Origin: Archaeoglobus fulgidus DSM 4304
Lineage (GTDB): Archaea; Halobacteriota; Archaeoglobi; Archaeoglobales; Archaeoglobaceae
Length of the DNA stretch: 32,000 nt
Reading direction: 5' to 3'
NCBI RefSeq assembly: GCF_000008665.1
Contig: NC_000917.1
Coordinates: forward strand, 1,170,001-1,202,000
A program made the position numbers and the translations under genes. This document shows positions 3,643-9,122 of this stretch, piece by piece. Below the pieces are notes generated by a model that was given only the letters and a program-made list of their open reading frames with translations, was not told where the DNA came from and did no database searches. How positions within the stretch are numbered: the stretch's first letter is position 1; every line of letters starts with the position of its first letter.

Positions 3643-4833
3643 ATGTACCGTCTGAAGTGCATTGAATGCGGGAAGGAATGGGGCGATGAAAACTACACCT
3701 GCGAGTGTGGAGGGCTTCTGGAGGTTGAAATAGACCTTGATGAGGTTGAAATTGACTTCAGGCTTGATGGAAGCAACATCACGGTCTGGAAGTACCGCTC
3801 TCTCCTCCCCGTTAAAATTGACCCTGTCACGCTGAAGGAGGGTGGAACTCCTCTTTACAGGGCCGAGAGGCTTGAGAAGGAGGTTGGTGTGAGGAGAGTT
3901 TATGTTAAGCACGAAGGTCTGAACCCCTCAGGCTCCTTCAAGGACAGGGGGATGACTGTAGGAGTGACCAAAGCCCTTGAGCTTGGGAGAAAAGCTGTTG
4001 CGTGTGCATCAACAGGCAACACCTCAGCCTCAATGGCGATGTATGCGGCAAAGGCGGGGCTAAAGGCCTACGTCCTGCTTCCTGCAGGCAAGGTGGCGCT
4101 GGGAAAGGTTGCTCAAGCTTTAATGCACGGGGCGAAGGTTATAGGAATCGACGGGAACTTCGATGACGCGCTCAGAATTGTGAGGGAAGTTTGCAGCAGG
4201 GAGCCAATCTACCTCCTGAACTCCATCAACCCCTTCAGGCCTGAGGGGCAGAAGACCATCGCCTACGAGATTGCAGATGAAATTGGTGTGCCCGACAGAG
4301 TTGTTCTGCCTGTGGGGAATGCCGGGAACATATCAGCAATCTACAAGGGATTTAAGGAGCTCAGAGAGGTTGGTTTGACAGATTCAATGCCCAAAATGAC
4401 GGGGATTCAGGCTGAGGGAGCGGCGCCGATTTACAGGGCTTTTAAAGAGGGAAAAGAGGACATAACACCTATGGAGAATCCGGAAACCATAGCGACGGCC
4501 ATAAGAATAGGGAATCCAGTCAGCGCGAAAAAGGCTTTAAGGGCCATCTACAGCACAAACGGGCTGGCAGAGGTTGTTAGCGATTCAGAAATCATCGAGG
4601 CGCAGAAGTTCTTAGCTGCGAAGGAGGGCATAGGGGTTGAGCCAGCCTCAGCGGCAAGCGTTGCGGGGCTGAGAAAGCTCGCAGCCAATGGTATGCTCGA
4701 CCCGGATGAAACCATCGTGTGTGTTGTGACGGGCAATTTACTCAAAGACCCGGAGACTGTTGTGAGGGTTTGCGGAGAGCCGGTGAAAGTTGAGGCGAGC
4801 GTTGAGGCTGTAATCAGGGCGATGAGGGCTTGA
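3643..4833 (+). CDS. thrC: Threonine synthase
   Basis: PLP-lysine motif LNPSGSFKDRGM, an N-terminal Cys4 zinc ribbon (CIECG...CECGG) and 396 aa length are typical of archaeal ThrC. Confidence 0.95.
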   Translation: MYRLKCIECGKEWGDENYTCECGGLLEVEIDLDEVEIDFRLDGSNITVWKYRSLLPVKIDPVTLKEGGTPLYRAERLEKEVGVRRVYVKHEGLNPSGSFKDRGMTVGVTKALELGRKAVACASTGNTSASMAMYAAKAGLKAYVLLPAGKVALGKVAQALMHGAKVIGIDGNFDDALRIVREVCSREPIYLLNSINPFRPEGQKTIAYEIADEIGVPDRVVLPVGNAGNISAIYKGFKELREVGLTDSMPKMTGIQAEGAAPIYRAFKEGKEDITPMENPETIATAIRIGNPVSAKKALRAIYSTNGLAEVVSDSEIIEAQKFLAAKEGIGVEPASAASVAGLRKLAANGMLDPDETIVCVVTGNLLKDPETVVRVCGEPVKVEASVEAVIRAMRA

Positions 4834-5208
4834 AAGCTATGAGATAAAGCCTGTTGAAGATTAGTCTGGATTCCCTTGAGAGCTCTTCCTTAACTATTTT
4901 GAGGAAATTCTGGCGGTATTCCTCACTCAAGGGTTTTGAATAGCATTGTTGGTTCAGGTAGGCTGCTGCAGCACCTGAAAGGAAAACTTTGAAAATTTCA
5001 TCCCCTGAATGGTGAGTTTCAACTCTCAGAATTTTGCAGAATCTGACGTCAAAGCCTGTCCTTTCAAACAGCCTTCGATACTCATTTTCGCTGTCGAGAA
5101 AGAACCACGGGCTTCTGAAGCTTTTGAAAATTTTTGAGGTTCTTTTATCTTTTTCAACAGATCTCAGCGCCTTGAGGAAGGTGGGAGAGTAGTTTTGCGT
5201 TGCGGGGG
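4814..5208 (-). pseudogene. Start-less 3' remnant of a Tam-like class I SAM-dependent methyltransferase gene
   Basis: My hand translation of the minus strand gives a stop-free frame from 5260 down to TGA at 4814-4816. The sequence is ...TQNYSPTFLKALRSVEKDKRTSKIFKSFRSPWFFLDSENEYRRLFERTGFDVRFCKILRVETHHSGDEIFKVFLSGAAAAYLNQQCYSKPLSEEYRQNFLKIVKEELSRESRLIFNRLYLIAFKPSSP*. There is no ATG, GTG or TTG until 38 codons from the end, which is why it is absent from the ORF track. The pattern matches the C-terminal half of trans-aconitate-methyltransferase-like enzymes. The SAM-binding N-terminal half is missing. Confidence 0.55.
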
Positions 5209-5282
5209 ATATATATACAAAACTTAAGTCTGTTTGGATAACCGCATTTAGATTTTGGTATTATTAATTTTATATTTAATTT

Positions 5283-5301
5283 GAATAATAGAAGAAAAGA
5301 T
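5283..5301 (-). terminator. Candidate oligo-T terminator downstream of the pAgo operon
   Basis: The minus strand reads atcttttcttctattattc 32-50 nt after the stop at 5333-5335. Archaeal termination uses T-rich tracts. The surrounding AT-rich background makes this weak evidence. Confidence 0.25.
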
Positions 5302-5332
5302 TAGTTAGCAGAATTATCTTCCGGTTTTCAAA

Positions 5333-6346
5333 TTAAGGTATCATTCTGGTTATTAATGAAACTAGTCCTAAGGCCTTTAAGATTGGAACCACTATCATAA
5401 ATTCTCCAATTTGCCCCAAAGTTATTTTAATTCTTTTTACAGGAAGTTCAATTGGTGGCAATCTTTCTTCAAAATATAAAAAAGAAGTTCCAACTATTAT
5501 CATTAAAATCTGCCCATGTGTTTCGTATGTAATTTTTATGCTTTCAATAGACCATAATTTGATTAACAAAAATAAAAGAGAAGACAGTACAGGAAACCAG
5601 ACTTTCTTATTTATTCTAAGCATAACTTCTTTTTTTATTATTCTGTTTAGCTCGCTTTCTGTGAAAATATATATCCTGTTCTTTTTTAGAAATAGATACA
5701 TCAAAAATACAACCAGATCAAATCTTTCAAATTTATAATTCAATATTTCAGGGATAAACTTTTCTCTTAGACTTTCTTTTTGATTTTCGTACTCCTCTGA
5801 AGTAATTAATTCCCATAACAAATATTCCTTTAAATTTTTAATTTTGGATGTATCTATATTTACATTTATTTTCTCTAAAAAAATTTGCTTACATGCCCAA
5901 TAATAAATTAACTCTTCACCTTGAGTCCTTAAGTACTCTAACAATGATTTAAAATATTCCAATTCACCAATTTTTTTGAGTATATTGAAATTCAATATTG
6001 GCAAAAGTTGAATTATTAGATTTGACTTTTCAGTAATAGGGCTTTTTTCAATTCTATTTTTCAATTTATTCCAATATATTAACAAATCCTCGCCAACAAT
6101 TAAAGCTGACACTAGGGCTGTTAAAATAGTTTCAGAGTCCAATCTTCTTCTTTCCTTAATTTTCTGAGAATAGGATTCCGCTAATTTCTTTACCTTCTTG
6201 TTTTTGTAGAAGCCATGAATGTATGCGCAAAGAACAAATCTAATCTCCTGATTAGAAATTTGTGGGTCAAACTCCCAATTATCAACAACATAATTCATCC
6301 TTTTTTCTATTTCATTTATTTTATCAATATATATTTTATCCATCAT
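5333..6346 (-). CDS. Hypothetical membrane protein; candidate pAgo-associated effector
   Basis: 337 aa from ATG at 6346. That ATG overlaps the Ago stop as ATGA (6343-6346). The N-terminal ~250 aa are K/E/I/L-rich and look helical and soluble. Hydrophobic segments (ORF-track numbering) are [18 protein letters not shown] (252-269), [15 protein letters not shown] (281-295) and [23 protein letters not shown] (314-336), plus [12 protein letters not shown] (212-223). I recognise no family. Confidence 0.7.
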
Positions 6347-7626
6347 AGGAACCACGGATTCGTTTGTAATGAGCGATTCCCTTCTGGGTTTATTGGATAT
6401 CCTCCATAACGATTTACATTTGCTATGATTCCTGCGACCAATTTTGGATAATTAACCGTAACGGGTAGATTTCTACTTCTAAATCCTCTCCAATTCATTT
6501 TAGACAGATAATATATTTCATCCAAAATCTCATGAACATTGTGGTAGTATTCTTCAGAAGTCCAATTATCGCTAACGATCTCAACACTTAATGGTTTTAT
6601 AGGGGTTACCATTTCTAATCCATTTCGTTTAAGATAAGGCTGTAAAAGTGTTAATAAGTATCTTTTAGAACTTAATTTTACTTTTGTCCCTTCATACGGA
6701 TGAAATCTATTGTTAGGGTCTCCCATTACCCAAAATGGATGAGTTTCATTTAAGTGAAGTATAGCATATTTTACGTCTCTTGATACCATTTCTTGTTTTT
6801 TTAACTCTTCAACCGTTTCTTTTAAAATCTTTGTCTCTCCATCTTTCATTTTGGGCCTTTTTCCACTTACATGTAAAGTTAACTTTTCGACATCCCAATC
6901 CGGATTACTTTTTTTGAAACCATATACCACTTTCTTAATTGTACTTTTTAAATATGTTAGATATTCACTACTCGTAACTATTGGTGAAATTTCATTCCAC
7001 AGCATTGTCCCATCTTTCTTGAAGACCATAGCAAAACAAAATAGATTTACATTATCAATACGTGTTGCGCCAGTTCCTATTATAATGTCTGAACCTTTTT
7101 CAGGATCTACATTTAAAATCCAAGGTTTTCCACCAAGTTTTGAAACAAATTGTACCAACAGATTGTCAACATAGAATGTCAAATTTCTGTTAGATAATAT
7201 ATCATATCTCATAAATTGTGATGGGATACTATTTATTAAATACGATTTAAGCTTATAATATAATGGGGTATTATATTCTGGAAGAACGAGCATAATTCCG
7301 TCCACACCCGTATCTATAGCATTATCTACTTGAGATTTGATAGAGTCAAAGTGTGGGGAATCGTAGATAAACTCAGAAATGTTTATATTATGAATATGCC
7401 ACACCTCATCAATTTTAGAACTTATTTGTGATTTCAATTGGTTTATTAAACTTGAAAACTGATTGTTATGGATTAATGCAATTTGATTATACTTTAAGGA
7501 GGGGACTTCATAAGGCCCATAATTCCTTAATCCTTTAATCAACTCACCAGTGTTTGATATTGGTACAGATGCGCCATTCCCTATACGGTATGTCAAACCA
7601 TTTTCAACTATTTTATATTCCATCAT
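6343..7626 (-). CDS. MID-PIWI-only prokaryotic Argonaute (AfPiwi/AfAgo), catalytically inactive
   Basis: 427 aa, [16 protein letters not shown]...[12 protein letters not shown] recognise this as the crystallised A. fulgidus Piwi protein. The 5'-phosphate pocket residues fall at Y123, K127, Q137 and K163 when I count them, and the chain ends in Leu427, whose carboxylate completes the metal site. The position of the first catalytic Asp reads IIIGTGAT rather than GxDV. GAGGTG at 7634-7639 lies 7 nt upstream of the ATG. Confidence 0.97.
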
Positions 7627-8363
7627 TGTTTGACACCTCTACTATTTCAAGAGGCTTAAAAACAATCTTAATTTCTCCATCAGGAGTGCTAAAAGTCTTT
7701 TCATCTTCTGAAGAACCGAAGGCTTCTTTTAAAAGCCCTGTGAGAAGGTTAAACTTATCCCGCATAGCTGTTGCATATTTTTTACCTTCAGGTGTAAGAT
7801 GTCTATGGAATGCTTGAACAGACACCCATATTTTCTTTTTGACACTTTCCCCGTACTTATCTTTAATCTTCGTATATGAGATTCGCTGGTTATTTTCTCG
7901 ATCAAGGATATTTATTTTTAGATCAACAATAATTCCAAAATTTGTATTTTGCCAATGATGAACATTAATTATTAACTCGTATTGTAGCTTTATTATATTG
8001 GAGAACTCATAGTTTTCAGTAATTTCCTTAACTAATCTCAAAGTTGATCCCAACTCTTTTAATTGCCATGGTGTAGCTATATTCTCTGACAATATATCAA
8101 GAAGATACTTTCGAAATATTTTTCCAAACAAAGCATTACTATTATCTATTTCATCAAATTCGTTTTCTATGCCATAACCATATAAATAAATTAAATCTCC
8201 GATCCTTTTTTTCCATTTACCTGGTAAAAATTCCTCATAATATGGAATTGCTGATACCTTTATCGTTTCTGGATAGTTAACGATGGGGTAAATATTAATA
8301 TAGAATTCCTGAACTTCTTACATCTGGAGTGTTCACATTACCCGAACTGAGTGGTATTTCCAT
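7613..8363 (-). CDS. Candidate Ago N-L1-L2-like partner protein (about 249 aa), interrupted by an apparent 1-nt frameshift near its 5' end
   Basis: ATG at 8363 is preceded by AGGAGG (8371-8376) with a 7-nt spacer. That frame gives MEIPLSSGNVNTPDVRSSGILY and then TAA at 8295-8297. The +1 frame is open from 8317 and reads EVQEFYINIYPIVNYPETIKVSAIPYYEEFLPGKWKKRIGDLIYLYGYGIENEFDEIDNSNALFGKIF..., continuing into the 172-aa track ORF, which starts only at a TTG at 8131. The stop at 7613 lies 14 nt inside the Ago ORF. The partner role is inferred from operon position, size and the beta-rich N-terminus. Confidence 0.7.
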
Positions 8364-8370
8364 GATAACT

Positions 8371-8376
8371 CCTCCT
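8371..8376 (-). promoter_or_regulatory. Shine-Dalgarno AGGAGG for the first gene of the pAgo operon
   Basis: The plus strand reads cctcct at 8371-8376, which is AGGAGG on the minus strand, 7 nt upstream of ATG 8363. It stands out in an AT-rich context. Confidence 0.6.
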
Positions 8377-8410
8377 AAAACTTGTTTTCATCACATCAAC
8401 TTAGGGTTTG

Positions 8411-8430
8411 GCTAAATAAATTTTAATCTT
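8411..8430 (-). promoter_or_regulatory. Candidate TATA box for the pAgo operon
   Basis: The minus strand reads aagattaaaatttatttagc, ~50-65 nt upstream of ATG 8363. This would give a ~30-nt leader containing the SD. The AT-rich background makes the call tentative. Confidence 0.3.
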
Positions 8431-8507
8431 GGACTGGAGTCTTATTAAATTGCAATTCCAGCTAAGTTAAAAATGGTTATATTTATTTTTTATCCTCAAA
8501 AAATTAC

Positions 8508-8517
8508 CTTTATTTAA
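8508..8517 (+). promoter_or_regulatory. TATA box for the secreted Cys-rich protein gene
   Basis: ctttatttaa is centred ~25 nt upstream of ATG 8538, a leaderless arrangement. Confidence 0.45.
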
Positions 8518-8537
8518 TTCACCAACAAGTTTTAACC

Positions 8538-9122
8538 ATGAAACGCTACATCCTTCTTCTGATACTTGCCGCCATCCTTCCGCTCTGCCTGCAGAGCGGA
8601 GAGCAGAATGCCGGAAGTGTGGAGAAGCTGAACTACACCATCAAGGGCTGTGGAGCTGAGAAGGTCGCTGAATACGGTGTTGAAGGCTACGAGTTTGTTG
8701 GTAGCAACCTCACAGTCCACATAATGAGAAACTGCTGCAGCGATGAGATTCTCGTGGAGAAATCCGAAAACGAATACAGAATCGTCGAGAAGGACAATGA
8801 CGGGGAAATATGCAAGTGCAACTGCATGAGCACGGTGGAGATATACGACGTCAGAGAGAAGGACTTTAAGGTCACCTTCACAGACTTTAACGGCGAAACC
8901 AAGGAAATCAAATCCCTTGAGGAGGAGTTTTGTGGATGGTCAACCTACGCTGAGTGCAAGAGCGATGCTGATTGCAAAGCGGCGGGATGCTCAGGGCAGG
9001 TTTGTGCTGGAGTTGGAGAGCAGATCGTCACGACCTGCGAGTGGAGGGAGTGCTTCGATGCTGCGAAGTACGGAATGAGATGCGGCTGCATCAACAATCA
9101 GTGCCAGTGGGCACAAAGTTAA
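8538..9122 (+). CDS. Secreted or lipid-anchored cysteine-rich protein
   Basis: Signal peptide MKRYILLLILAAILPLCLQSG. The C-terminal ~60 aa carry 10 Cys (CGWSTYAECKSDADCKAAGCSGQVCAG...TTCEWRECFDAAKYGMRCGCINNQCQW), resembling small archaeal Cys-cluster domains. Function unknown. Confidence 0.65.
   Translation: MKRYILLLILAAILPLCLQSGEQNAGSVEKLNYTIKGCGAEKVAEYGVEGYEFVGSNLTVHIMRNCCSDEILVEKSENEYRIVEKDNDGEICKCNCMSTVEIYDVREKDFKVTFTDFNGETKEIKSLEEEFCGWSTYAECKSDADCKAAGCSGQVCAGVGEQIVTTCEWRECFDAAKYGMRCGCINNQCQWAQS

Follow-up and report, generated by a model that had tools for sequence, protein, structure and literature searches.

How might an Argonaute without catalytic activity signal to a membrane protein, and is the apparatus for doing so complete in Archaeoglobus fulgidus DSM 4304? 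The question is raised by a stretch of 32,000 nucleotides of that genome (contig NC_000917.1, positions 1,170,001 to 1,202,000; the window, whose numbering is used throughout), in which three co-oriented and overlapping open reading frames (ORFs) occupy positions 5333-8363 of the minus strand. These are agoN, for the partner protein AfAgo-N; ago (AF1318), for the Argonaute AfAgo; and AF1317, for a protein whose soluble part precedes a C-terminal transmembrane (TM) region. The evidence favours a horizontally acquired defence module, built as a split, PAZ-less and inactive long-B prokaryotic Argonaute (pAgo) system, in which the target-bound AfAgo-N/AfAgo heterodimer would probably engage AF1317, leading to a compromised membrane and abortive infection. 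In DSM 4304 this system is most likely off, and the AfAgo-N gene of the window is a frameshifted pseudogene.

The three-gene operon and its interpretation were published in 2024 (Manakova et al., 2024, Nucleic Acids Research; PMC10954474), and the complex described there, fAfAgo (AfAgo-N/AfAgo; PDB 8ok9, 8old, 8olj, 8pvv, 8qg0), comes from the same locus as the window. The AfAgo-N of that study is residue-identical to that of the window apart from a 2-bp deletion that its authors repaired, and the island, the ORF overlaps and the effector reading of AF1317 are alike. The present analysis adds the agoN alleles seen across the population, a count of syntenic loci, evidence that the AF1317 family is isolated in sequence, and the linkage of the relatives to type I restriction-modification (R-M) genes. 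A sequence-only reading of the window had also arrived at a scheme in which a dead, split long-B pAgo is joined by an N-L1-L2 protein and by a TM candidate effector, and that outline stands, with the exception of the intact first gene. Its view that AfAgo has been studied mainly in isolation is outdated, since the 2024 work restored the ORF, solved the heterodimer and compared AF1317 with SiAga2 of Sulfolobus islandicus (PMC10954474). The module lies in an island of low guanine-plus-cytosine (GC) content, at 0.303 over 5200-8530 vs 0.505 in the remaining window; an island of ~31% GC with three overlapping ORFs had already been described in A. fulgidus DSM 4304 (PMC10954474). The features are collected in Table 1.

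Table 1. Positions of the Argonaute module and of its lesions in the window
Feature	Positions	Strand	Basis
Low-GC island carrying only the three-gene module	5150..8530		Composition profile; ~30% GC vs ~50% in flanks
AF1317, C-terminal membrane region, ~residues 248-337, with stop codon	5333..5605	-	Hydropathy, model helices, alignment
AF1317, N-terminal soluble all-alpha domain, ~residues 1-240, candidate Ago-docking/regulatory domain	5627..6346	-	AlphaFold2 model
AfAgo / AF1318, 427-aa MID-PIWI protein, truncated long-B pAgo	6343..7626	-	PDB, Pfam and PADLOC matches
Remaining AfAgo-N (N-L1-L2) gene, +1 frame, 234 codons and TAA 7615-7613	7613..8317	-	Translation; PDB match
A7 tract in AfAgo-N; A6 in three other assemblies, a second independent frameshift allele	8206..8212	-	Alignment
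Frameshift site, tract CTATAT, one TA unit fewer than in intact alleles (CTATATAT)	8298..8303	-	Allele alignment
AfAgo-N gene 5' fragment, 22 codons (MEIPLSSGNVNTPDVRSSGILY), then premature TAA 8297-8295	8295..8363	-	Three-frame translation

The middle protein had been named as the A. fulgidus Piwi protein AfAgo, and the identification is borne out by PDB entry 1w9h, which aligns over residues 1-427 of both (974 bits; locus alignment at 100% identity). Its family matches are to Pfam Piwi (E = 4.5e-72) and PADLOC pAgo (E = 4.7e-60), and its nearest non-self PDB match is EcAgo of the EcBPAN system (E = 2.7e-12). The clade around it is tight: 34 clusters reach at least 51% identity, after which the values drop to 23%. 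The residues assigned to the 5'-phosphate pocket (Y123, K127, Q137 and K163) are all present, as is the C-terminal L427. At residues ~185-189, where active Argonautes have GxDV, AfAgo has GTGAT; the pattern G.D[VIL] does occur once, as an unrelated GSDI at 178-181, upstream of the GTGAT stretch. AfAgo is reported to lack the catalytic DEDX tetrad and to be catalytically inactive (PMC10954474). The signals described around the gene can be read directly from the sequence: GAGGTG lies at 7639-7634 (-), 7 nt ahead of the Ago ATG at 7626, the TAA of the upstream frame (7615-7613) falls within the Ago ORF to give a 14-nt overlap, and the Ago TGA shares the ATGA at 6346-6343 with the start codon of the third gene. 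GAGGTG is a putative independent ribosome-binding site for Ago, which the DSM 4304 allele retains.

The first gene is in a different state. The AGGAGG reported ahead of it is there, Shine-Dalgarno-like, at 8376-8371 (-) and 7 nt before ATG 8363. The continuous ORF of ~249 aa that had been read from 8363 to 7613 is absent: the interval measures 751 nt (8363-7613+1), which is no multiple of 3. The stop at 7613 belongs to the +1 frame, which is open no further upstream than 8317; the first canonical start in that frame, TTG 8131, would give 172 aa and has no ribosome-binding site ahead of it. The cause is a lesion in a short repeat, CTATAT-TAAT in the window vs CTATATAT-TAAT in intact alleles, in which one TA has gone from CTATA(TA)TTAAT at ~8303. 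An intact ORF for the ~250-aa AfAgo-N is thereby excluded in the window by the premature TAA and the 2-bp deletion; the TA is present in L023 (DSM 8774, CP006577), L024, L026 and L030, and the deletion is shared by the window and L028. These observations agree with the published account, in which the upstream 172-aa ORF owes its truncation to the loss of 2 bp that a second strain still has, a TA insertion restored it, and the restored 250-aa protein is the N-L1-L2 equivalent that forms a heterodimer with AfAgo, seen in crystal and cryo-EM structures (PMC10954474).

The proposal that the upstream protein supplies the N-L1-L2 half is correct for the restored frame, which is identical to 8ok9_C at 230/230 aligned residues (E = 1e-152); the +1 frame also matches the AfAgo-N chains of 8old, 8olj, 8pvv (8pvv_C) and 8qg0. 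AfAgo-N has no family in Pfam, PADLOC, NCBIfam or PHROGs. Because agoN is frameshifted, the heterodimer cannot be made from the window, and the translational coupling of the first gene to Ago, which the sequence-only reading had assumed, is lost. The truncation, together with the lack of a ribosome-binding site before TTG 8131, leaves the sensor incomplete and the system most likely off.

At the protein level, A. fulgidus AfAgo-N starts with ~15 codons (MEIPLSSGNVNTPDV, window 8316-8363) that are unrelated to the MMRLNDFIEVE-type N-termini of the relatives (L001, L004, L010 and others). Homology to the relatives starts at a conserved SSG(I/V)LYINIYP motif, the exact place of the DSM 4304 frameshift.

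The alleles were compared between the window and the loci L023-L030, of which L028 is identical to the window. The island occupies the same chromosomal site in seven non-identical A. fulgidus-type assemblies, among which the 4.6 kb of window 3946-8587 (the island and the 3' part of the threonine synthase gene) show zero substitutions. The flanks of this block carry 4-33 single-nucleotide polymorphisms, including 29 within 3389-3945 in L024. The block looks like the product of a recent sweep or a recombination tract. The only differences inside it are the TA deletion (window, L028) and the shortening of A7 to A6 at 8212 (L025, L027, L029), both in agoN. In the three assemblies that are one A short, the gene calls split agoN into 57 + 200 aa. 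The A6 allele could be either a real population polymorphism or a homopolymer assembly error. Slippage-prone tracts of equal or greater length in ago and AF1317 are unmutated; agoN holds 3 of the 13 comparable tracts, and two hits there would arise by chance with a probability of ~0.05. This pattern weakly suggests a recurrent loss, or a switching, of the partner gene.

Several observations accompany these alleles. The A6 carriers are oil-reservoir-type assemblies, and a sister sample with the same flank haplotype (L026) is intact. Apparent frameshifts also occur in metagenomic relatives, in agoN (L011, ~1193), in the AF1317 homologue (L020, ~777-794) and in ago (L021, ~1769-1799); they may be assembly errors in AT-rich tracts, and they are a caveat to the idea that only agoN breaks. 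One further sequence, L007 (Logan SRR5099565), matches the window at 100% identity from a junction at 8235 to 4866 and departs from it at its own positions 1-72, where a diverged agoN-like stretch reads GYYKEFLPGKW vs IPYYEEFLPGKW; either chimeric assembly or a recombinant allele would explain it.

Could the frameshift be harmless to the system? It might be bypassed by a programmed +1 shift at CTA-TAT-TAA, or be reversible through slipped-strand phase variation at (TA)n and A7, an on/off switch for a costly abortive infection. Both lesions do lie in simple-sequence tracts and are the sole differences in a substitution-free 4.6-kb block whose equal or longer ago and AF1317 tracts are unmutated, and if the ribosome moved by +1 at the stop codon, the frame would be regained at the cost of a single residue. 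However, contingency loci usually have longer tracts than (TA)3 and A7, the A6 allele may reflect a homopolymer assembly error or one population only, the concentration of two hits in agoN has the chance probability given above, and frameshifts also affect ago or the AF1317 homologue in L020 and L021. For the programmed shift, a known stimulatory context is missing and re-pairing of tRNA-Tyr on AUU would be poor. Programmed frameshifting at TAT-TAA was rated unlikely for want of a supporting context and in view of the intact alleles, and bypass and switching taken together are highly improbable.

The same alleles bear on the view that the module in DSM 4304 is a decaying relic of horizontal transfer with no current function, in which AfAgo and AF1317 are intact only through too little time. 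The frameshift in agoN fits such a relic, as do the two different frameshift alleles and the zero island substitutions among A. fulgidus-type assemblies, which imply a very recent acquisition or spread. At least four assemblies, differing in their flank haplotypes, nevertheless still carry intact alleles, and an operon transcript has been reported (Afu-277, cited in PMC10954474). Decay of this kind is unlikely; it also concerns DSM 4304 only and is compatible with the defence-module explanation for the intact alleles.

That explanation proceeds in three steps. With intact alleles, the AfAgo-N/AfAgo heterodimer binds an RNA guide carrying a 5'-phosphate together with the complementary target DNA, as the literature shows; guide-RNA/target-DNA binding is better with the heterodimer (PMC10954474), and a beta-relay conformational switch has been observed in fAfAgo (bioRxiv 10.1101/2025.04.08.647717). 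The target-bound complex would then engage the cytoplasmic all-helical domain of AF1317. Finally, by analogy with SiAgo-Aga1-Aga2 and EaBPAM, the AF1317 TM helices would compromise the membrane and lead to abortive infection. In DSM 4304, where AfAgo-N is cut after 22 codons, the sensor half is missing and the system most likely off, with AfAgo and AF1317 intact.

Gene order argues for a partnership of the three proteins. Enrichment of AF1317 homologues beside pAgo genes had been predicted and was found, with an AfAgo homologue directly upstream in 16/16 distinct informative loci (59-84% identity). This is the arrangement of the BPAM systems, in which a TM gene immediately downstream of a long-B pAgo is a conserved association, and long-B pAgos have been reported to show a conserved downstream association with 'Af1317-type' proteins (PMC10954474). 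An AfAgo-N homologue precedes Ago in all 11 loci with enough DNA (61-70% identity); there, as in the window with its 14 nt, agoN lies directly upstream of ago and overlaps it. The start/stop overlaps are conserved among the homologous loci, and the gene calls give a 4-nt ATGA-type overlap of the Ago and TM genes. The genes downstream of the module vary between loci (DUF4384, DUF1156/DUF499, pyruvate kinase), and those beyond the module in relatives are variable and defence-type (type I R-M, DUF1156/DUF499). A scan of genome contigs found a single locus, which was not that of A. fulgidus itself. Conservation of the partner/Ago/TM triad in every informative locus shows that agoN, ago and AF1317 are inherited as one unit. 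Such a unit supports a joint function, and says nothing of what AF1317 does.

AF1317 begins at ATG 6346 and, as reported, encodes 337 aa. Its AlphaFold2 model (mean predicted local distance difference test score, pLDDT, 80.3; most 10-residue blocks over 11-220 at 79-95) consists of a soluble all-alpha domain with 12 helices, followed by a long helix 230-266, a helix 274-295, a short hairpin and a helix 310-325. A C-terminal membrane region is also indicated by Kyte-Doolittle hydropathy, which marks residues 249-270 and 308-337 and, less strongly, ~273-293; together with the model helices it gives AF1317 the SiAga2-type layout, in which a TM region at the C-terminus comes after a soluble domain. 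Within the membrane region, the motifs KKVWFP and FEExLP are conserved or invariant (alignment A1). A search of 5.8 billion clustered proteins yields AF1317 homologues in 27 clusters at 42-100% identity. Seven of these 27 clusters (P0011, P0017, P0019, P0020, P0021, P0023 and P0026; A1 columns 330-381) have an alternative C-terminus that lacks the PVKR hairpin and carries an extra hydrophobic stretch ending in IIWLFTE, so that family members differ in how many membrane helices they have.

The sequence-only reading took this protein to have no assigned family or function. The first part holds, as there is no curated family and no match at threshold in Pfam, NCBIfam, PADLOC or PHROGs; the second does not, since AF1317 has been a candidate effector since 2024, named as a SiAga2-like membrane protein on a similarity that consists of an EMBOSS Needle score only (PMC10954474). 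A SHOCT_2 match (E = 0.061) is sub-threshold and was disregarded. Foldseek searches of the model against PDB and BFVD gave nothing at E < 0.3, and PDB sequence searches with AF1317 and its family profile gave chance repeat-protein matches only. An effector role for AF1317 is suggested by synteny and by the soluble-plus-TM architecture.

Comparison with characterized systems shows how far the analogy extends. SiAgo-SiAga1-SiAga2 of Sulfolobus islandicus (Zeng et al., 2022; PMC11788926) resembles the AfAgo module in combining a MID-PIWI Argonaute, a separate N-L1-L2/APAZ-like partner and a separate soluble protein with a C-terminal TM region. There, SiAga2 binds only guide/target-loaded SiAgo-Aga1 and depolarises the membrane (PMC11788926). 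SiAgo, however, falls into a separate phylogenetic clade (PMC11788926), and a database-wide HMMER search with the AF1317 profile detected similarity only within its own small family. The BPAM systems, such as EaBPAM of Elizabethkingia anophelis (PMC10620215), share with the AfAgo module an inactive long-B pAgo and a TM protein (bAgaM, og_100) encoded immediately downstream, and cell death by EaBPAM depends on the C-terminal TM region (PMC10620215). As a long-B pAgo, EaAgo consists of one chain, while AfAgo is split and has no PAZ domain; homology of AF1317 to og_100/EabAgaM did not emerge from the same database-wide profile search, whose matches all fall inside the AF1317 family. In EcBPAN (EcAgo + EcbAgaN; PDB 23wq; PMC13535254) the output is a PD-(D/E)XK nuclease, in contrast to the membrane domain of the AF1317 module, and the N-terminal helical domain of the nuclease docks on the target-bound Ago (PMC13535254).

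A parallel in gene order is found on the Haloplanus rallus plasmid pMBLA003601 (L031 2419-6025), where genes for a 329-aa partner, a 436-aa Piwi protein and a 438-aa third protein follow each other with overlaps. The third protein resembles AF1317 in having a soluble domain and C-terminal hydrophobic helices. The identity of its Ago to AfAgo is only 23.6%, and the third-protein family (~23 haloarchaeal clusters) has no profile-profile similarity to AF1317 (hhalign probability 0.12).

Taken together, several points weigh against a role of AF1317 as the effector of the Ago complex. No stable Ago-effector complex was detected for EaBPAM, in which EaAgo and EabAgaM did not co-purify (PMC10620215). 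The Ago-docking helical domain of bAgaN is stated to be absent from TM effectors (PMC13535254), at odds with the shared helical domain proposed in PMC10954474; AF1317 shows no sequence or profile similarity to the bAgaN-type N-terminal docking domain, and its profile has no match among PDB sequences, though the copy searched includes the EcBPAN entry 23wq. A relationship of the AF1317 family to a Shewanella bAgaN-like protein, to the Haloplanus downstream TM protein or to the haloarchaeal family profile of the latter was considered and rejected (hhalign probabilities 0.07-0.13). Against 1.84 billion representatives, the AF1317 family profile found 14 proteins, all family members or fragments and no validated effector; as only own-family matches were returned, this is a small family without relatives nearby in sequence space. 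Confidence in the modelled TM region is only moderate (pLDDT 57-76), and no experiments on AF1317 turned up in the searched literature.

Some of these points would suit a different, non-toxic role for AF1317 as an adaptor or tether in the membrane, either holding the Ago complex at the cell envelope, where it could for instance encounter incoming DNA, or regulating that complex. A soluble domain with few TM helices suits an anchor as well as a pore, AF1317 has no homology to proven pore or depolarising effectors, and the failed co-purification of EaAgo and EabAgaM can be counted on the same side. A dead Ago with a tether alone, however, would have no output activity, and both characterised Ago/TM systems kill via the TM protein (PMC10620215, PMC11788926). 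In addition, strictly conserved charged residues in or next to the hydrophobic helices (FEExLP, KKVWFP) suggest more than passive anchoring. A tether is regarded as unlikely, and AF1317 is retained as the candidate membrane effector.

The relatives further show a linkage on which the published account is silent (PMC10954474). The type I R-M gene hsdS lies directly upstream of agoN in eight of the nine informative non-Archaeoglobus relatives (L001, L004, L010, L011, L014, L017, L019, L022), and the ninth, L003, has only a frameshifted hsdS 3' remnant (3810-3976). The start of agoN overlaps the end of hsdS by ~14-17 nt, and a GAGGTG-N7/8-ATG junction is present in most R-M-linked loci. Further upstream on the same strand these relatives carry hsdM, and L001 also hsdR (L001 1-7047; L004 1-7023). 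An hsdS remnant was sought upstream of A. fulgidus agoN and none was found. The left edge of the island is probably inside the ancestral agoN 5' end.

A bolder and distinctly speculative scenario, to which a minor share of confidence is given, would make the module natively the distal half of a six-gene coupled operon, hsdR-hsdM-hsdS-agoN-ago-TM, a co-expressed two-layer defence of R-M and Ago/membrane abortive infection. A. fulgidus would have captured the Ago arm only, with the agoN 5' end replaced, and the orphan arm would have been repeatedly knocked out or phase-switched at agoN via short-repeat slippage. AF1317 would also stand for a separate family of TM effectors, without homology to SiAga2 or bAgaM.

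At the boundaries of the island, no tRNA was found in the window, no Rfam family was found in the boundary check, and a search for flanking direct repeats at the edges gave none that were convincing. The island is bordered by a gene at window 8538-9122 (+) for a 194-aa cysteine-rich protein with a hydrophobic N-terminus resembling a signal peptide. The L023 homologue has the precomputed Pfam annotation Heavy_Cys_CGP (PF27854), and this border gene is unrelated to the Ago module.

AfAgo is among the most-studied prokaryotic Argonautes, and a three-protein sensor/effector view, a point made in 2024, puts some twenty years of structural studies of the protein by itself in a new light. With this locus one can test by what route an inactive, split Argonaute passes its signal to a membrane protein, and also whether AF1317 represents a new effector family. 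The R-M linkage and the recurrent loss of the partner gene, if true, would bear on the regulation of abortive infection and on its cost to the host.

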